Below, piece after piece: positions 3,415-24,097 of a DNA stretch of 64,000 nucleotides. The notes below the pieces were generated by a model. It was not told where the DNA came from, searched no databases, and was given only the letters and a program-made list of their open reading frames with translations. This stretch comes from a virus. A program made the position numbers and the translations under genes. How positions within the stretch are numbered: the stretch's first letter is position 1; each line of letters starts with the position of its first letter. Location: positions 1 to 64,000 of IMG/VR virus record IMGVR_UViG_3300020170_000001, one strand, 5' to 3'.

Positions 3415-3780
3415 TCAGGCGGGGATGTATTCCAGTGCCAACTCAGCGCCCAAGACTCGCATGTACGGGTCGGATTCCTCGCACGCGACGTTGCCAGTGC
3501 TGCCGATGAGTTCCGCATCCGTACTGTTGGAGAGCGTGAACAGGCAAACTACGAAGAGCGGCCCTTCGTATGGGAAGCTTCCCTCGTAGGCCTCCGTTTC
3601 CGGCTCAATCGAAACGAAGTAGGGCCCGGACGTGAGGCGCTCTTCGGCCGCAGCGAGCTGCCGCGCGCCGTTGATGCGGCCTTGCTCCTCCGTCTCGGTT
3701 GTCGGGTCATACGACGAGGGCGCGTTCTCGTAAAAGAACCGTTCGGCTTCCGTCAGTGTGCTGGTCATCTCGAATCCCAT
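3415..3780 (-). CDS. acidic hypothetical protein
   Basis: 121-aa ORF. Confidence 0.65.
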   Translation of the reverse strand: MGFEMTSTLTEAERFFYENAPSSYDPTTETEEQGRINGARQLAAAEERLTSGPYFVSIEPETEAYEGSFPYEGPLFVVCLFTLSNSTDAELIGSTGNVACEESDPYMRVLGAELALEYIPA

Positions 3781-3945
3781 CGGCGCACGGATCAGGGGGT
3801 GTCACCCAAGCATGCCCCGCGGTGAAACCGTCGACATCGCCTGATCGAACGATGTCGGGTCACCTGATCGTTTAGTTGCCGCGGGTGCGACCGATGACAC
3901 CCGCGGCGATGAACAGGCAGAAGAGAGTCCACGCAGCAACCGCCA

Positions 3946-4416
3946 TCACTGCCACTCCGCGAGGCGTTTTTCGAGTTCGGCCACAGTCGCCTCTTGTGAC
4001 CGGAGGAGTGTTGCTGTCGCGTCGCGTTCCGCGCGTGCGCTATCCATCTCATTGTTGAGCCTGGCGCGCTCCGCAAGACGCAGAACTTCTGGATTCGCGT
4101 CGATGTGGTCCTGTACGGCCGCCGCGATCGCGGCCACCATGGCAGCGGAGTAGAAATCCGGCGCATCCGTCCCTTGCGGGCGCTTTGACAGGCGCGGGCG
4201 CGTGCTGTCGTCGACGGCCACACGCCCAGTGGCATCGACGACAAAAAACACCATTCCGATGTACTCCTGCTCGCGGTAGACCAACGCTGGTGTTTCATCG
4301 TTGATGTGCGCCGGGCCGGATTCGTCACCGACGGTGACCGCAACGCGAGCCGTCATGCGTACCTTGCCGAATTTTGTGGTCAACACGATGTCTCTCGGGA
4401 AGCTCATCCAAGCCAT
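3946..4416 (-). CDS. hypothetical protein with C-terminal coiled coil
   Basis: 156-aa ORF, GAGGAAAGG RBS. Confidence 0.7.
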   Translation of the reverse strand: MAWMSFPRDIVLTTKFGKVRMTARVAVTVGDESGPAHINDETPALVYREQEYIGMVFFVVDATGRVAVDDSTRPRLSKRPQGTDAPDFYSAAMVAAIAAAVQDHIDANPEVLRLAERARLNNEMDSARAERDATATLLRSQEATVAELEKRLAEWQ

Positions 4417-6646: not shown

Positions 6647-7009
6647 CTATGCGGGATGGGTCGAATCGGTAGAGCAGAGCGCGCAGTGGAAGCCGAGACC
6701 GATGGCCTCGCGATGCGCCTGGTGACCGAGCAAGGCTTCTTCCTCGCTGTCGTAACCCTGGATCTCATCCCACGGTGAGTTGTCGAGACGAATCGCGGTG
6801 CCGAACAACCGTGAGCGATCGATGCCAGGGCAGACGAAACCGAGGTAGACGGTCGCGAGGGTCGCGGGATGATCATTCAGCGTGACGGTGTCCCGGCAGA
6901 GGGTTCGGTCCCGCTCGTAGAGCGCGCCCCACTCCTCGACGCTGATCGGATTTCCCAGCGGATCATAGTAAAAGTGATCGGGGTCGAATCCGTTGGCGAT
7001 GCTGGTCAC
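6647..7009 (-). CDS. hypothetical phage protein
   Basis: GTG start overlapping the upstream stop; 'TVYLG...LFGT...YDSEEEALLGH'. Confidence 0.65.
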   Translation of the reverse strand: MTSIANGFDPDHFYYDPLGNPISVEEWGALYERDRTLCRDTVTLNDHPATLATVYLGFVCPGIDRSRLFGTAIRLDNSPWDEIQGYDSEEEALLGHQAHREAIGLGFHCALCSTDSTHPA

Positions 7010-7254
7010 TGGTCGACCGTGTTGCGAATCCGTGCGGCGCTCCGCTGCTTTCGCGCGATCAAGGTGATGCCGACGACGGTTGGCAGGATCGTCACGGCGA
7101 ACGCCGCGTTGTCCGCCCATTCGGAGTGGATGTGAGCTGCACGCAACAAGGTCAACGAGTACGCGCAAGAGGCTGAGCTCCCGCCGGCGAGCCAGCCCAG
7201 CCAGAACACGGGATTCTTGATCCAACTCCGCGAGCTAGTACTTCGTGTCGACAT
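7006..7254 (-). CDS. small membrane protein
   Basis: Two hydrophobic segments; leaderless behind TTCACG-N17-TACTGT. Confidence 0.6.
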   Translation of the reverse strand: MSTRSTSSRSWIKNPVFWLGWLAGGSSASCAYSLTLLRAAHIHSEWADNAAFAVTILPTVVGITLIARKQRSAARIRNTVDQ

Positions 7255-7471
7255 ACCAGCGACAGTAGCCGGGTACTAGCATTCCGTGAACACAAAGCCG
7301 CACAGCCCGTGCGGGTGACTCGGTGTCTGATCCGCTACCGTGAGATCTTCCGTGATGGTGTACGGAGGAAGGTTCAGATCCTCACACGGTCGACACTGCC
7401 TAGCCATCACCGAACGAGCCGACCGGGCCCCCGTCGTCTGCGCCCGGTCGGCTCGTTTCGTCGCCCGTGGA

Positions 7472-10551: not shown

Positions 10552-11646
10552 TCATGCGAGCGTCTCGGCAGGCTCCAGCGTGGACGCCTCGTTGAGCTGG
10601 TGTTCGGCCAGCGCGATCATCTCATTGCGCCAGCCAGGGTTCTCGTCTGCGTAGGCGAGCACGTTGGGCTCGCCGTGCAGTTGGAGCTTTCCCTCGCCGG
10701 AGGGCACGAGGGTCGGGACCTTGCGGTCGGTGAAGGTGACCCAGGATCCGGATACCGTGACCAGCTTGCGGGACACCAGGACCTGCAGCGCCGACCAGGC
10801 GTTATCGAAGCCCATCCCGAAGCGGCTTCGCACCTCGACGACGCGGCCAGGCACGCCGACCTTGTTCTTCACGCACTTGACGTAGACCTTGTTCGCGACG
10901 AGCTGATTGGACTCCTCGCCGGTCAGGAAGTCTTCGAGCTTGTTCTTCACACCGCCGCCGACGTCGAACTCCAGGCGCAGGCTGGCGTAATACTTGAGTC
11001 CTCGCCCGCCGGGCGTGGTGACCCGAGGCGGCAGCCCGGGCCGGCCGGTCATGTCGACGGCTTCCATCTTGTGGTTGATGAACACCGCGGCGCAGTCCTG
11101 CTCGTGCAGGATGCCGGTCATGATCTGCAGCAGCCCGGACATGAGTTTGGCGCGGTGCATCGCCATGGTGGCCTGATCGAAGCTGCCCTCTTTGAGTCGC
11201 CGCGGTGCCATGGCCGCGACGGAGTCGAAGATGACCAGGCGGACTTTCCCGGTGTCGATCAGCTCCAGAGTCGCTTCCGCGCCTTGTTCGAGCCAGGTCG
11301 GTTGCAGGGTCACAAAGGACGGGTGCGCGAAGTCGATGCCCAGTTCCTCGGCGTAGTCGCCGTCCAGGGCGTGCTCGAAGTCGAGGTAGACGATGCGCTC
11401 GTCGGAGCCGCGGGCGATGATGTCGGACTGGAGCATCACGGCGGTCTGCAATGCGGTCGTTGTCTTGCCGGATGCTTCCAGGCCATACAGTTCGGTGACC
11501 CGCCCCCGCGGTAGGCCGCCGACGCCGGTTTGCCAGTCGATGCTGAGGTTGCCGGTCGGCAGGCCGACCACCCGATCCGGGGTGCCGATCTTCAGGCCGG
11601 TTTTCTTCACGAAGTCGGCAAGAATGTCATCAACGGTCTTGGTCAT
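10552..11646 (-). CDS. recA: RecA/UvsX-family recombinase
   Basis: GGLPRGRVTELYGLEASGKTT, DFEHALD, IFDSVAAM, TTPGGRGLKYYASLRL, KNKV. Confidence 0.95.
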   Translation of the reverse strand: MTKTVDDILADFVKKTGLKIGTPDRVVGLPTGNLSIDWQTGVGGLPRGRVTELYGLEASGKTTTALQTAVMLQSDIIARGSDERIVYLDFEHALDGDYAEELGIDFAHPSFVTLQPTWLEQGAEATLELIDTGKVRLVIFDSVAAMAPRRLKEGSFDQATMAMHRAKLMSGLLQIMTGILHEQDCAAVFINHKMEAVDMTGRPGLPPRVTTPGGRGLKYYASLRLEFDVGGGVKNKLEDFLTGEESNQLVANKVYVKCVKNKVGVPGRVVEVRSRFGMGFDNAWSALQVLVSRKLVTVSGSWVTFTDRKVPTLVPSGEGKLQLHGEPNVLAYADENPGWRNEMIALAEHQLNEASTLEPAETLA

Positions 11647-12214
11647 CAAAGTCCTTCTTGCGAATCACTGCGGTGTCGTAACGCGACGTTCCCGGCACGT
11701 CATAGGTGCCGTACTGCTTCTTCATGTCGATGGCCCAGCGGGCAATGAGATACGCCGAGCAGTAGTCGCTGGCGACTTTGGTGGCTCGGCTCTTTCCGCC
11801 GTTGTCTTTCGCCCGGATAGATAGGTCCGGCGGTGTGTAGCCGTAGCGCTCCGAGACGGGGAAGACCGCTTGGGGGCCTGTCCCGCGTTCCATTCCTGTG
11901 TAGTGGGCACGCCAGGTTGCGGGAGCGACGAAGAGAACATTCCGCCGGGCGAATGCCATGTGCATCGCGTGCACAACTCGGCCCTGCAACCGGCAGACGG
12001 TCTTGACCAGGGTGGAATAGGGGAGACCGTGCGGCAGATCCTCGACAGCCATGAGGTCCGGCCCGTGCGGCTGAGTAAATGTGTCCGTCAGGCGAGCGAG
12101 GAATTCTTCCTCACTTTTATCCCATGAGTCGAACTGGGCGCGGACCATGAAGTCCTCGTCCATCAGGCAGGCGGCTGAATACTTGGCAGCCAGGTCGACG
12201 GCGAGGACTGTCAC
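11630..12214 (-). CDS. RuvC-like Holliday junction resolvase (RNase H fold)
   Basis: N-terminal VLAVDLA, central AVED, C-terminal D; adjacent to recA. Confidence 0.6.
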   Translation of the reverse strand: MTVLAVDLAAKYSAACLMDEDFMVRAQFDSWDKSEEEFLARLTDTFTQPHGPDLMAVEDLPHGLPYSTLVKTVCRLQGRVVHAMHMAFARRNVLFVAPATWRAHYTGMERGTGPQAVFPVSERYGYTPPDLSIRAKDNGGKSRATKVASDYCSAYLIARWAIDMKKQYGTYDVPGTSRYDTAVIRKKDFDDQDR

Positions 12215-13607: not shown

Positions 13608-14333
13608 CTAGCTCAGCTTCGTCGTCTTGTCCCACATCGCCGGCCACGTCTTCGGCCCGATCAAGCCGTCAACACCGAGGTTGTTGGCCTTCTGGAAGGC
13701 TTTCACGACTCCCAGGGTGATCGGGCCGAATACCCCGTCAGCGGACAGGTGCGCGCCTCGGGACTTGGCTTGGCTCTGCCAGACCCGCACATTCGCGTCG
13801 ACCGTGTTGCTCTGCTTGAGCGGGTAGCCGGGGTACTTCGGCGCGACGGTCCCGGGGGTGACATTGCCGCCGCCGCCGGAGGGCTGCCACAGCAACGGGC
13901 GCTGGTTGGCCTTCGAGCGCCACCAGGAGATGTGGCTCCAGTGGTCGTGGCCGGTGCCGGTGTAGCGCTGCAGGGTGCCGTTGCCGTTCCAGCGGGCCCA
14001 GTAGTAGACGGGCTTGTTGGCCCACGGCTTGGTGATCATCTCGCAGATCATCGGCAGCTCGCCGCGCATCAGCCGGGCCAGCAGGGTGGCGTGTAGGGCC
14101 ATCAGCTTGGGGTTGTAGCCGTGGTGGAAGTCCCCCGCGCAGGCCCAGTCCATCCGGTACGGCGCGGCAGCTTCGTGCCGGCGGGAGTAGTCCGTCGCGG
14201 GGATCGCGGTGGCCGGGCAGTGGAAGCCGTAAGTGTGCAGCGCGTTGCCGCAGCACCCGGAGTTGCCGCCGCCGAGTTTGATCCAGTCGCTCATCTCAGC
14301 GTCGATCGCCGAGGCACACACGCAGCTCGCCAT
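13608..14333 (-). CDS. endolysin: putative Zn-peptidase domain plus peptidoglycan-binding domain
   Basis: C-terminal DGVFGPIT...VKAFQKANNLGVDGLIGPKTW; N-terminal H..D..HxxHxS residues. Confidence 0.8.
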   Translation of the reverse strand: MASCVCASAIDAEMSDWIKLGGGNSGCCGNALHTYGFHCPATAIPATDYSRRHEAAAPYRMDWACAGDFHHGYNPKLMALHATLLARLMRGELPMICEMITKPWANKPVYYWARWNGNGTLQRYTGTGHDHWSHISWWRSKANQRPLLWQPSGGGGNVTPGTVAPKYPGYPLKQSNTVDANVRVWQSQAKSRGAHLSADGVFGPITLGVVKAFQKANNLGVDGLIGPKTWPAMWDKTTKLS

Positions 14334-14353
14334 GTCCTCCTTATCGGCGGAAC

Positions 14354-14390
14354 TTGCACGCGGGCCGTGTGAACAATTACTGTTCACAGC
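14354..14390 (+). promoter_or_regulatory. sigma-70-type promoter with overlapping palindromic operator
   Basis: TTGCAC-N18-TACTGT-7 nt-ATG; TGTGAACA-N5-TGTTCACA at 14368-14388. Confidence 0.65.
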
Positions 14391-15015: not shown

Positions 15016-15045
15016 GAGCCGGGCGGATACCCTTCCGCCCGGCTC
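15016..15045. terminator. hairpin closing the ncRNA and the convergent gene
   Basis: GAGCCGGGCGGA / TCCGCCCGGCTC 12-bp stem. Confidence 0.8.
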
Positions 15046-15496
15046 TGGCAAAGGAGAGTCGCATCCTTTAGGTTACATCCACTAAACAATCACCAGCACA
15101 TTTGAAAGTCGCGGATCAGCTTCATGTCCCCATGCTCTGCCGTTGAGCTACCGCCTCATGTTGGAGAGGCGGTCCGGATTTGAACCGAAACCCTGCGAGA
15201 TTTGCCCGCGACTGGTCGATCTGGTGACCGGATGTTGCTATTGAGTTTTGGCGATAGCTTGAGTTTCAAATCGGTGCGCGTCTGCCATTTGCGCCACCCG
15301 GGCGTGACGAGCCCGGGGCAGGATTCGAACCTGCAACATCACCGGTCATCAACCTGAGGCTGAGCCTCACTCGCCCCTCCGCGCCGATACGATGTGGAGG
15401 GGAGTCATATTGGGCGTCCCTACCCGCCTGGACGTCCTGCGTACGGAGCGATTCCCGCCGGAGCTAGCCCGCACGTCCCGTCTTCATGAATCAACG
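15016..15496 (-). ncRNA. large structured ncRNA with two circularly permuted tRNA-like domains
   Basis: Two units in the order T-arm, closed acceptor stem, D-arm (15272-15344, 15127-15200); three nested long-range helices; no credible ORF. Confidence 0.8.
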
Positions 15497-16273
15497 TCAG
15501 GCTGCGAACAGGTAGTCGAAGACCCGCCGCCCCGGATTCGGGCGCAGAGCGTCTTCCATGTTGGCCTGTTCGCGAGCGAACTTCACCGCCTCGGTCAGTG
15601 CGGTGATCCGGGTCAGCATCTTGTTGACCCGCGATGCCGGCAACGCGCCGGAGAATTTCACCGTCGACCAGGTGCCCACCGGGATGTCCTCGGTAAAGGA
15701 CTCCACCTGTGCCGGGTGCCGATCGGTCGCGACGGCCAGGACGTGGTTGCGCTTGGCCTTCGCGGTTTTGACCGTGGCCACCGGTTCGGTGCAGTAGACG
15801 TCCTTGGTCGGATCGAACGTCCACGTCTCCGTCGAGTCCAGGATGGGCAGCTTGCTGACCACCGTCTCCAAGTTGACTAGCTGCTTTTCCAGGAACATCA
15901 GATACGAGACCGGGACGTCGGCGAGCAAGGTGACCGGCTGATCGCCGTCGATCAGCACGACGTCCGCGCGGGCGTGCTGATTGGTCCAGTCCAGCGCCGC
16001 GGTGATGTCGAACAGCTTGGTGAGGTTGCCGGCGACATCGCGCAGCACCTGCTCCACCTTGACCTGTACGTTGGCCGATTCGGACGGGTAGCGGAATCCC
16101 TCGTCGTCTTTCGGGGTGTAGGTCCGAGAGTGCCCGGCGAGCAGCGCGTTCTTTTGCAGGAGGTGATAGCTCTTGGTCAGATGGCTCTCGGAGTCGCCCT
16201 TGATGCCCGTACGCACGGCGATGATCTGGTTGAGAAGCGTGACGCGCTCGGCGGCAACGGCGACTTTCGGCAT
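15497..16273 (-). CDS. conserved hypothetical protein (recalled as DUF7873-like; unverified), candidate partner of the ncRNA
   Basis: LNQIIAV..G.K...SRTYTPKDDEG...VPVSYLMFLEKQL...HPAQVE...KFSGALP...AVKFARE.AN; AGGAGG RBS. Confidence 0.8.
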   Translation of the reverse strand: MPKVAVAAERVTLLNQIIAVRTGIKGDSESHLTKSYHLLQKNALLAGHSRTYTPKDDEGFRYPSESANVQVKVEQVLRDVAGNLTKLFDITAALDWTNQHARADVVLIDGDQPVTLLADVPVSYLMFLEKQLVNLETVVSKLPILDSTETWTFDPTKDVYCTEPVATVKTAKAKRNHVLAVATDRHPAQVESFTEDIPVGTWSTVKFSGALPASRVNKMLTRITALTEAVKFAREQANMEDALRPNPGRRVFDYLFAA

Positions 16274-19934: not shown

Positions 19935-22319
19935 TTACAGGAGGATCTCGCCGAGGGCGTCGGCGGTATACCGGACCCGCACGCCTGGAAAGATCTGGTT
20001 GGCCTGGCCGATGTGCTCCGGCCGCAACCCGGTGACCTCGCTCAGTGTGATCTCGCCCTTGGGGGTGCCGACGGTGACCCGGTTGCCTCCAGGAAGCGAC
20101 CTGGCCAGCCGCAGGAACGCCGACCAGGTGGCGGCCGTGGGCATCTCCGGCAACTCGACGAGGACCTGTCGGGCTTCGACACGGGCGGCCTCGTGCAGGA
20201 CCTCGGGCTTGACCGCCGGCAGAACCTCGACCAGGTCGCCGTCCTCGTCCTCCTCCAAGGCCGGGGCCAGCTCGAAGGCCTTCTCGCCCTTAACGTTCAA
20301 CGTGCCGTCGTCCTGCACCTCGATCTCGGTCGGACTGCCCCAGCGGCGGGCGATATGCCAGTCGGCCTTCATCTGCGGCCAGCCCGGAATGGGGAAGATG
20401 ACGGCTGGTTGCAGAATGGCAACCGCGTCCTGCGGCTCCACGCTCGCGCGGACGTAGAACTCCAGCGCATCGTGGATGTTCATGACCAGTTGGATCTTGT
20501 CTTTCAGGCCTGCTTCCTTGATGGCCGCGACCGCCCGGACCATGGCAATCTTCATGGCGTCGCCGGTGGCTGCTCCCTGGATCGGGTAGTTGACGCAGGC
20601 CCGGTCGCCCTTCTGGTAGATCCAGCGTTTGTCGCTCCGGTACTCCCAAATCGGCAGGCGGCGGCCGAATTTGCTGGTCACGTAGCCGTAGGTCTTGCCG
20701 TGCTCGATCTGTTTCTTCGACCAGGCGGCGATGTTGGGGAGGCCGGCGAAGTACTTGTCCATCAATGCCTGGGCCTCTTCGATGGGAATGCCGAGCCGGT
20801 CGGCGAGCGACTTCACGCCCATGCCGTAGCCCAGCGCAAAGTTGAGCGTTTTTCCAATGTCTCGTTGGTCCTTGTTGACCGCTTCGATCGGTATGCCGAG
20901 CATCAACGCTGCAGTTCGCTTGTGGACGTCCTCGCCGTTGGCGAACGCCTCCAGCAACGCCGTCTCCTGCGCCTCTCCAGCGATGGCGCGCAGCTCGGCT
21001 TGAGACAGGTCGAAGCCGAGGATGTAGTGGTCAGGCGGCGCGATGATGCAATCGCGGAAGTTGAACCTGAAACAGGTCCCAGACGGCGGGGTTTCTCCCG
21101 CCTCGTGGGCGGCCCTACCCGCGGCAAGGTCGTAGTGATATTTCTTCGGACTTTGCTGATAAGCAGGATCCCCGACTGCGAATCGTCCGGTGATGACGAA
21201 GGCGGACAGGTGGTTGGGGTGGGCCCGGCCGTCGTCGGCGTAGTTGTAAAGGTCCTCGTAGCGGTCCAGGTAGGTGCCGAGCAGCCGGGTGATCTGTTTC
21301 CACTCGCGGATCTTCTGGACGACCGGATAGGTCTTCGCGAGCCGCTCCAGGGCGATCTTTCCGGTGGACATCTTGCGCTGTTCGGGAGGCAGATCGCGGG
21401 TCTTGTCGGTGTAGACGGTGGTTCGGTAGCCGAGCTTTTCGAACAGCACGCGGGAGATGGCCGGCGGGCTGGCGAGGCTGATCGCGACGGGCTCGCCGAC
21501 GAGATCAGAGAGCTCCGCCATGATCTGGGCGTTGAACTTGTCGCGGAAGGCCCGCAGTTCGTCGGCGGTGCGCCGCATGCGGGCCCAGTCGTAAAGGACG
21601 CCGACGTCTTCCATAGACGGAATGACGTCCTGGACGATGCCGAGCTCCACCTTGTAGAGCAGCTGATCTTTCACAGTCGGGTAGTACCGACGATGGATCG
21701 CAAGGCACCAGACGGAGTCTTCGCAGGCGTATTCGATGACCCTGGGCTCTAGCGGCAGCACGTTGAACCGCAGGAACTTTCGCTTGTTCTTCGCTAGATC
21801 GGGGAACAGGTCGAACAGCTCGGTCATGGTGTGCCCGAACAGTTCCTTGGTCAGGTACTTCAGGCCGAAGCGTTGATACTCGGCGGCCAGGTAGGCCTCG
21901 ACCTGGGTGTCCGAACGGATCGGGAAGTATCCGTTGCCGGCGCGTACTGCTTCGCCGTAGTCGGGATCGTCCCAGAGGTGAATGCGAAACCACTTCGCGA
22001 GGTGGCGGAGTTCGAAGGCGGCGTTGTGGGCGACGCCCATTCCCGTGGCGAGAAGGACCCAGAAGATGCGGGCCGCCTGGTTGTTGTCGAGATTCTCCGC
22101 GTCGTCGTGCCCCAGCGGAACGTATCGAGCCCAGTCGGTGGAGTCGGTGAAGCTGATCCCCGCAATGAAAGCGGTTTCGGGGTGTACCGCGCCCTTTTCC
22201 CGGTCCGGTCCGTGATAGCCGGTCTCGATGTCGTAGCCGAAGACGTTCCCGTGGATGCGTTGAGTGAGCTCGGCCAACTCGTCGAGGTCGGTGACCAGCC
22301 CGTAATTCCTGATGCTCAC
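19935..22319 (-). CDS. polA: family A DNA polymerase with 3'-5' exonuclease
   Basis: YDIET, HNAAFE, YACED; TGRF; DLSQAELR; GKTLNFALGYG; NYPIQG; IHDAL. Confidence 0.95.
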   Translation of the reverse strand: MSIRNYGLVTDLDELAELTQRIHGNVFGYDIETGYHGPDREKGAVHPETAFIAGISFTDSTDWARYVPLGHDDAENLDNNQAARIFWVLLATGMGVAHNAAFELRHLAKWFRIHLWDDPDYGEAVRAGNGYFPIRSDTQVEAYLAAEYQRFGLKYLTKELFGHTMTELFDLFPDLAKNKRKFLRFNVLPLEPRVIEYACEDSVWCLAIHRRYYPTVKDQLLYKVELGIVQDVIPSMEDVGVLYDWARMRRTADELRAFRDKFNAQIMAELSDLVGEPVAISLASPPAISRVLFEKLGYRTTVYTDKTRDLPPEQRKMSTGKIALERLAKTYPVVQKIREWKQITRLLGTYLDRYEDLYNYADDGRAHPNHLSAFVITGRFAVGDPAYQQSPKKYHYDLAAGRAAHEAGETPPSGTCFRFNFRDCIIAPPDHYILGFDLSQAELRAIAGEAQETALLEAFANGEDVHKRTAALMLGIPIEAVNKDQRDIGKTLNFALGYGMGVKSLADRLGIPIEEAQALMDKYFAGLPNIAAWSKKQIEHGKTYGYVTSKFGRRLPIWEYRSDKRWIYQKGDRACVNYPIQGAATGDAMKIAMVRAVAAIKEAGLKDKIQLVMNIHDALEFYVRASVEPQDAVAILQPAVIFPIPGWPQMKADWHIARRWGSPTEIEVQDDGTLNVKGEKAFELAPALEEDEDGDLVEVLPAVKPEVLHEAARVEARQVLVELPEMPTAATWSAFLRLARSLPGGNRVTVGTPKGEITLSEVTGLRPEHIGQANQIFPGVRVRYTADALGEILL

Positions 22320-23707: not shown

Positions 23708-24011
23708 GCGAAGTATCATGCATGGCTGGCTTGACCAGTGCAAACGCACTATCCACAGTGGAGCCTTCTCGGCGCTGGGGTGCTACGTGCGCGAGCAGCC
23801 GGCGAACGGCGCAGTGCAGCCGGCTCGGGTGTTTCTTACGTGCGCGAGTGCACGTACCGGTGCGGGCTGCCCGTCGACGGACCGGTCTCCGCCCGGCCAG
23901 GTAACGATTGCATAACGGCTAGTGGCGGGTGGGCCGACAGGCGGCCACGGCGTGCGCCCGGCGGAGCGGTGCGCGTGGGGCCGCATGCCCCCGGTTTGCG
24001 GCCCCACGCTG

Positions 24012-24097
24012 TGGGGATGGCCGGACTCGAACCGGCAATCTCTGCGATTTTCCAGCGCTAGTCAGTCGCAACACTCTGTCCTTTGAGCTACACCCCC
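24012..24097 (-). tRNA. atypical tRNA-like gene with enlarged anticodon arm (identity undetermined)
   Basis: Acceptor GGGGGTG/CATCCCC, D-arm GCTC/GAGT, T-arm GCCGG-TTCGAGT-CCGGC, 18-nt anticodon loop. Confidence 0.7.

Follow-up and report, generated by a model that had tools for sequence, protein, structure and literature searches.

A structured RNA with two tRNA-like modules accompanies DUF7873 genes in phages and bacteria

We analysed a 64,000-nucleotide stretch of viral DNA (hereafter the window), which is the first 64 kb of the 124,652-bp IMG/VR record IMGVR_UViG_3300020170_000001, a record with a completeness estimate of 93%. On the minus strand of the window, a gene for a 258-aa protein of the Pfam family DUF7873 (PF25283; 15497-16273, ATG at 16273, stop at 15497-15499) is followed by a conserved RNA of about 365 nt that contains two domains shaped like transfer RNA (tRNA). 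The gene and the RNA form a conserved pair across phages and bacteria. We consider, with a probability of about 60%, that the RNA is a member of a widespread and undescribed structured non-coding family that acts with DUF7873, most likely as a ribonucleoprotein.

Co-occurrence of the DUF7873 gene and the RNA

A query with the single protein gave no viral loci, and a query with an alignment gave 255 viral contigs. For the comparison, we took 80 of these 255 contigs, 5 metagenome loci and 80 of the at least 589 places of bacterial species genomes in which DUF7873 was found. The bacterial loci belong to Streptomyces, Actinomadura, Dactylosporangium, Nonomuraea, Herpetosiphon and Chloroflexia. By tblastn, the gene was detected in 75 phage records (phages of Vibrio, Gordonia, Rhizobium, Klebsiella, Serratia, Arthrobacter, Pseudanabaena, Ralstonia, Rhodococcus and Microcoleus). 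When seven annotated phages were inspected, all seven had some 340-1160 nt without a convincing gene after DUF7873. The RNA was searched with two covariance models, R1 for its 3' domain and R2 for its 5' domain. A full-length R1 match lay just after the gene in 77/80 bacterial loci, and no other full-length match was present in the 995 kb searched. Among the viral loci, R1 gave such a match in 76/80 and R2 gave a full match in 67/80. The gene-plus-RNA arrangement that an earlier reading of the window, made from the sequence only, had suggested for Streptomyces genomes is real, and a covarying permuted-tRNA structure is present in the DNA downstream of the homologous genes, viral as well as bacterial.

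The loci that R1 missed were looked at individually. The four viral ones are two records in which the RNA is located about 8.5 kb from the gene, one locus cut by the end of its contig that retains the 5' domain, and one provirus fragment without the RNA. At one locus (L054), gene and RNA run in opposite orientations. All three bacterial loci that were missed belong to Herpetosiphon. Herpetosiphon aurantiacus has a single gene at 3.01 Mb and a single RNA, with both domains, at 1.17 Mb, where it is flanked by a chloride-channel gene and a glycosyltransferase gene. In two further Herpetosiphon genomes, the 6 kb around the gene lack the RNA, and one copy is found elsewhere in the genome. Each of the five whole genomes searched (5/5) contained exactly one copy of the gene and one of the full RNA. 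Among 81 Streptomycetaceae genomes, the DUF7873 gene was found in 49, once as a fragment: 48 genomes had gene and RNA, 31 had neither, one had the gene fragment only and one had a weaker RNA only. The latter two loci are likely decaying. One (G046:C11:242842-243012) holds an RNA of 88.7 bits without a detectable DUF7873 gene, and the other (G045:C62:58725-58916) holds a 64-residue fragment of the gene with no RNA found.

The phage copies lie among tRNA genes. In six of the seven annotated phages tRNA genes flank DUF7873, with none at the cyanophage Pam2 locus, and the same holds for 43/80 viral loci. In total, 199 tRNAs were counted in 367 kb of flanking DNA, 191 of them on the DUF7873 strand, which points to tRNA or translation upkeep during infection. 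The system looks tied to tRNA biology. In bacteria, the conserved neighbours reflect Streptomyces synteny only (FUSC, amidohydrolase, DUF899, permease and uracil-DNA glycosylase). An upstream NTP_transf_2 gene was considered as a further part of the system and rejected: it occurs in a subset only (its cluster in 21/80 loci, immediately upstream in 16), and no relative was seen among the viral loci.

Some published annotations overlap the RNA. In Gordonia phage Keelan (L003, 3724-4073), a coding sequence is annotated at 3768-4013 inside the R2 and R1 matches, and in GodonK (L001, 3545-3673), gene 151 is annotated within the 3' domain, antisense to the RNA. Both "hypothetical protein" genes are probably false gene calls. 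The GodonK array that holds the RNA also contains a phage transfer-messenger RNA (tmRNA; 6764-7292 on the minus strand, 90.3 bits), inside which the record annotates a tRNA-His.

Architecture and covariation of the RNA

Both covariance models and a survey of the terminal hairpin place the conserved RNA of the window at 15379-15016 on the minus strand, the strand of all the elements described below. A length of about 480 nt had been proposed from the sequence; the conserved part is shorter, as the 117 nt after the stop codon (15380-15496) form a spacer with GC-rich hairpins that neither R1 nor R2 covers. In the relatives, this spacer measures 60-95 nt and its hairpin differs from that of the window copy.

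The 5' domain (15231-15379; R2 111.7 bits, E 7.5e-23) is closed by helix P1 (15375-15371 with 15254-15250), which encloses hexamer repeats, a stem and the first tRNA-like unit. The hexamers, of the form A-R-R-Y-U-N, occupy a large internal loop at 15345-15370, with further copies at about 15268-15255 and at 15249-15240. The columns of the array in 63 distinct RNAs carry 1.55-1.88 bits of information for the A at position 1 and 1.3-2.0 bits for the U at position 5. The stem 15344-15340/15276-15272 then leads to unit 1 (15272-15344), identified in the sequence and by the strict scan described below. Unit 1 has a T arm (15334-15318), a 7-bp acceptor (15317-15311 with 15303-15297) closed by a 7-nt loop, then UG and a 3-bp D arm of the tRNA-Leu type, which resembles the D arm of the annotated tRNA-Leu adjoining the GodonK copy. 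In the 3' domain (15066-15238; R1 140.8 bits, E 5e-36), three nested helices (15235-15230/15080-15075, 15227-15221/15096-15090 and 15213-15206/15114-15107) surround unit 2, and a conserved single-stranded motif at about 15104-15097 aligns with CUUAAACG. Unit 2 (15127-15200), found in the same two ways, has a T arm from 15189, a closed 7-bp acceptor whose 8-nt loop starts UCCA, then UA and a 4-bp D arm. A 12-bp hairpin with the loop AGGGUA (15016-15045) ends the RNA. Altogether, the RNA consists of two complete tRNA-shaped modules in which a stem replaces the anticodon arm and continues into the remaining RNA. The two permuted units with their closed acceptors, the nested helices and the final hairpin had all been placed at these coordinates in the sequence-only reading; the sequence and the scan agree on the units, the helices covary and the hairpin is kept in the relatives.

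The strict scan asked for a 5-bp T stem with the T-loop motif, directly adjoined by a perfect 7-bp hairpin with a loop of 3-20 nt. When both strands of the 124,652-bp record were scanned, units 1 and 2 were the only matches. Downstream of the homologous genes, matches were found on at least 144 of 169 sense strands, against 0/169 antisense strands and 0/169 shuffled sequences, and they clustered at about +50-125 and +175-275 nt past the stop codon. As the scan of the record finds only the two units and the sense strands are so enriched over antisense strands and shuffles, chance is excluded.

A family plan was drawn from 69 RNAs with two strict units, thinned to 55 with less than 88% mutual identity. 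In the 5' domain of the family, P1 closes the large internal loop, with four to five hexamers on its 5' side and two on its 3' side, and a variable stem lies between this loop and unit 1, which has the 3-bp tRNA-Leu-type D arm. In the 3' domain, unit 2, with its 4-bp D arm, is reached through the three nested helices and a fourth, weaker stem, and the single strands GAUCGA, GACUGA and CUUAAACG between the helices are conserved. The terminal hairpin is present in all 55 non-redundant RNAs, with a stem of 10-17 bp, and 45/55 of its loops contain GGNUA.

Pairing within the 3' domain was measured in a MAFFT alignment of 40 RNAs that was not fitted to the model. In this alignment, 87.6% of the cells were paired, against 40-45% when the partners were slid by 1-3 columns; double-sided changes occurred at 42/42 pairs, and none of 500 shuffles reached the observed values. 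The T and acceptor stems score 100% paired, which is circular because these stems were selected to pair. The two middle nested helices (94% and 88% paired) and the D arm (98%) had not been chosen in this way. Weaker values were obtained for the outermost nested helix (72%) and the stem adjoining unit 2 (65%). For the 5' domain, 92.8% of the cells were paired against 37-49% in the slid controls, in an alignment fitted to its own model and hence biased towards it. P1 and the unit-1 stem were each 81% paired, and each pair of the latter had 35-48 double changes. When 63 joined RNAs were scanned for covariation, no extra covarying helices, no pseudoknots and no pairing between the repeat strands were detected, nor any canonical pairing partner for the hexamers. 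The possibility that the hexamers are a coding frame (ARR-YUN giving (K/R)(L/F)) was rejected because the frame breaks and has no conserved stop.

Both units share details with tRNA. U8 is kept in both units of all 55 RNAs, and both keep the T-loop consensus and the GG of the D loop. The second base of the acceptor loop is C in 42/55 RNAs for unit 1 and in 53/55 for unit 2, and the first base of the unit 1 loop, at the place of the discriminator, is A in 37/55. In the window copy, the third acceptor pair is C:G in unit 1 and G:C in unit 2, so that neither has a G3:U70 pair. At the window locus, ARAGORN called no tRNA and the tRNA model RF00005 scored 20.5 bits against a cut-off of 29. At 10/80 Streptomyces-type loci (L114, L118, L125, L131, L132, L141, L154, L156, L162 and L165, at about 6756-6865), the 5' domain begins with a tRNA called by ARAGORN, tRNA-Phe in nine and tRNA-Leu in one. 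These calls use the hexamer repeats as an anticodon loop together with the T arm of unit 1, and may reflect an alternative fold or be false.

The DUF7873 protein, its surroundings and known tRNA mimics

The 258-aa protein matches PF25283 over profile positions 2-243 of 244 (E 1.1e-95, 320.4 bits against a Pfam cut-off of 27), and no family was matched in PHROG, PADLOC or NCBIfam. DUF7873 comprises 2,554 representative clusters (50% identity) at E <=0.001. Its length is uniform, and a single longer form was found, of 457 aa and with no other domain. No solved relative was found by sequence, and Foldseek searches of the DUF7873 model against PDB and BFVD gave no match at E <=0.001 despite a confident model (predicted local distance difference test score, pLDDT, 84). 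The structural matches in the Atlas were DUF7873 itself, short viral hypothetical proteins, and DUF6847 at a template-modelling score of 0.40-0.50. In the model, a long beta hairpin that is locally basic carries a conserved motif at its tip. The prediction of a complex supports a symmetric homodimer: the model scored 0.69, against 0.00 for the best of three controls, with a contact agreement of at least 98% between runs and a partner pLDDT of at least 86. This score was reached by 20/30 proteins solved as one-chain pairs and by 1/23 solved as single chains, counts that are only a rough guide because the dimer was modelled with an alignment of our own.

Phage replication and lysis genes surround the locus. 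They encode a recombinase resembling RecA/UvsX (10552-11649), an endolysin-like protein that carries a peptidoglycan-binding domain (13608-14387), a family A DNA polymerase (19935-22319) and helix-turn-helix proteins. The whole 124,652-bp record has only two tRNA genes. One of these, a tRNA-Val(GAC) of 87 nt (24011-24097, minus strand), has 20 nt in place of the 7-nt anticodon loop, a short insertion.

At gathering scores, no Rfam family matched in the window or in six representative loci, YrlA, tRNA and GOLLD included. The closest likeness is to YrlA, the Y RNA that partners Ro60/Rsr, as the sequence-only reading had pointed out. The YrlA model (RF02553) matched units 1 and 2 in tandem at 28.1 and 25.9 bits, and copies from cultured phages at 24-38.2 bits, all below its gathering score of 69. 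Both RNAs have a T arm, a D arm and an acceptor closed by a loop, with the rest of the RNA leaving at the place of the anticodon arm, and both occur in bacteria and phages. In contrast to YrlA, which has one module, the DUF7873-linked RNA has two, and adds the hexamer repeats, the three nested helices and the terminal hairpin with its GGNUA loop; its partner gene is DUF7873 instead of TROVE. A search of the entire phage record gave no TROVE/Ro60 gene, which extends the earlier observation that the window has none. In four of five bacterial genomes, TROVE is at least 111 kb from the DUF7873 locus, and the fifth has no TROVE match. As TROVE is thus absent, distant or unmatched, the comparison argues for a separate system that shares the idea of a tRNA mimic, and by its sequence the RNA does not belong to YrlA/Ro60. 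In three of the four TROVE-bearing genomes, the TROVE gene has its own short tRNA-like matches about 1 kb upstream. Bacterial genomes also gave short closed-acceptor tRNA-like matches to R1, of 46-60 bits, at sites remote from the loci of DUF7873 and TROVE alike (G005:C1:7701272-7701331, L179; G003:C1:6216050-6216144; G001:C1:3179855-3179949).

The RNA can also be compared with the two-piece, permuted tmRNA, in which a T arm and the 3' strand of the acceptor (with CCA) likewise precede the 5' strand of the acceptor, the tRNA-like domain lacks an anticodon arm and a dedicated small protein, SmpB, is the partner. The DUF7873-linked RNA differs in that it has full D arms and no tag reading frame, no G3:U70 and no detected pseudoknots. 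At the locus, no tmRNA model matched at its gathering score; the only match, partial and of 25.3 bits, was that of beta_tmRNA (gathering score 84) to the Vibrio phage copy. With GOLLD and ROOL, which are located near tRNA genes, the RNA shares the character of a large structured phage RNA of unknown role. It differs from them in leaving their Rfam models unmatched at gathering score, in its strictly co-occurring protein gene and in being common in bacterial chromosomes. Searches of open-access papers and bioRxiv preprints gave no paper that names DUF7873 or describes the gene-RNA pair, and the pair is not described in the parts covered of PMC4201824 and PMC11109978; the supplementary phage tables of the YrlA paper could bear on this point.

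A possible ribonucleoprotein and its alternatives

How the RNA is processed and what it does can be proposed by analogy. According to Chen et al. (2014, PMC4201824), YrlA from Mycobacterium smegmatis is cut by ribonuclease P (RNase P) in vitro and in vivo and gains CCA, which they credit to its 7-bp acceptor stem. By this analogy, both acceptor loops of the DUF7873-linked RNA would be openable. We propose that tRNA-handling enzymes would read both modules as tRNA, that RNase P would nick the acceptor loops and that CCA ends would probably be added as in M. smegmatis YrlA. The opened loops would leave a base-paired RNA in three pieces with CCA ends. A DUF7873 homodimer might then grip this RNA via the conserved hexamer repeats or the loops. 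That DUF7873 binds the RNA at all is suggested by their co-occurrence. A role of the hexamers as its binding sites is speculation, and so is a symmetric grip in which the two free conserved hairpin arms of the modelled dimer would hold the two-module RNA. The particle may serve tRNA or translation upkeep and, like Ro60 with its Y RNA, might be a scaffold for a tRNA-binding factor or a decoy of it. A tRNA decoy, a ribosome binder and a nuclease scaffold had been named as possible roles in the sequence-only reading.

Several observations weigh against a ribonucleoprotein of this kind. In the provirus fragment (L080), the gene is present and the RNA was not found, and 10/80 viral loci have the 3' domain without a detectable 5' domain. 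Since gene and RNA are adjacent in most genomes, their joint gain and loss is expected from linkage alone; evidence of coupling beyond linkage comes only from Herpetosiphon and from the two viral records with a distant RNA. In favour of coupling, the unlinked Herpetosiphon RNA lies between unrelated genes, with a promoter-like site that ends about 10 nt before P1 and a U tract past its hairpin; this one site is, however, what chance would give, as the promoter scan returned 1 where 0.9 is expected. Only about 30% of the acceptor loops start with NCCA (21/69 and 19/69). Finally, DUF7873 is near neutral (isoelectric point 6.6, family median 6.3), which is atypical of basic RNA binders, and as no solved fold matches, its activity is unreadable from its fold.

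The neutral protein would suit a different explanation, in which the RNA acts alone and DUF7873 is a mere linked neighbour, for example with the RNA as a self-assembling molecule like ROOL or GOLLD or as a sponge for a host tRNA-binding enzyme. The phage copies inside tRNA arrays, where ROOL and GOLLD would be at home, agree with this as well. We regard it as unlikely, however, because gene and RNA are both retained when they are separated, because the 2/81 discordant genomes both look like remnants, and because no ROOL or GOLLD model matched at gathering score. The separated copies also bear on the idea that the RNA is a cis-acting 3' element of the DUF7873 messenger, either an RNase P processing or stabilising signal or an attenuator. 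In nearly all loci, the RNA does lie just downstream of the gene and in its orientation, and the scan of the window gave no promoter-like site between gene and RNA. Yet, its distance from the gene is 1.8 Mb in H. aurantiacus and about 8.5 kb in two viral records, it does not adjoin the gene in two other Herpetosiphon genomes, it is inverted in L054, and some 365 nt of covarying structure far exceed what a processing signal needs, so that we find a cis element highly improbable. Decayed or rearranged tRNA genes without function are hardly credible at all. Their location in phage tRNA regions and the ARAGORN miscalls in 10/80 genome loci could suggest it, but every helix covaries, which refutes this explanation unless the alignment is an artefact, and the architecture is common to genomes of Actinomycetota and Chloroflexota and to phages of cyanobacteria and proteobacteria.

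Another alternative takes the RNA as a split adaptor, like tmRNA or tRNA, in which RNase P and 3' trimming would open the loops, the three pieces would have CCA ends, and unit 1 at least would be aminoacylated and either enter the ribosome or feed aminoacyl transfer. The acceptor helices are perfect over 7 bp, their loops start N-C and sometimes NCCA, and the order of T arm, acceptor 3' strand, CCA, acceptor 5' strand and D arm is that of permuted tmRNA genes, with the partial beta_tmRNA match of the Vibrio phage copy in addition. Unit 1 combines a frequent discriminator A with a tRNA-Leu-type D arm, and the anticodon is not read by leucyl-tRNA synthetase. The cutting and CCA addition reported for M. 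smegmatis YrlA also agree with it. Against this stand the lack of an anticodon loop, of G3:U70 in the window copy and of any tmRNA family at cut-off, and the absence of a frame with a conserved stop, the 7-nt strand of P1 breaking the hexamer frame. We therefore hold the split adaptor to be distinctly unlikely. Its most elaborate form is a long shot: a particle of three RNA pieces that has two genuine CCA ends and a unit 1 charged, possibly, with leucine, held by a two-armed DUF7873 dimer, would occupy two tRNA sites of the ribosome at once. If true, large phages and soil bacteria would share, in such a double mimic, a new means of rescuing, stalling or reprogramming translation.

A ribonucleoprotein of the RNA and DUF7873 remains the explanation that we favour. 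If real, it would mean that a large and widespread family of structured RNAs was missed by annotation, and that small "hypothetical protein" genes overlying the RNA in published phage genomes are to be corrected. Alongside tmRNA with SmpB and Y RNA with Ro60, it would also stand as the third kind of tRNA-mimic RNA that has a protein partner of its own. The location of the phage copies inside tRNA arrays points to a contest over tRNA and translation during infection.

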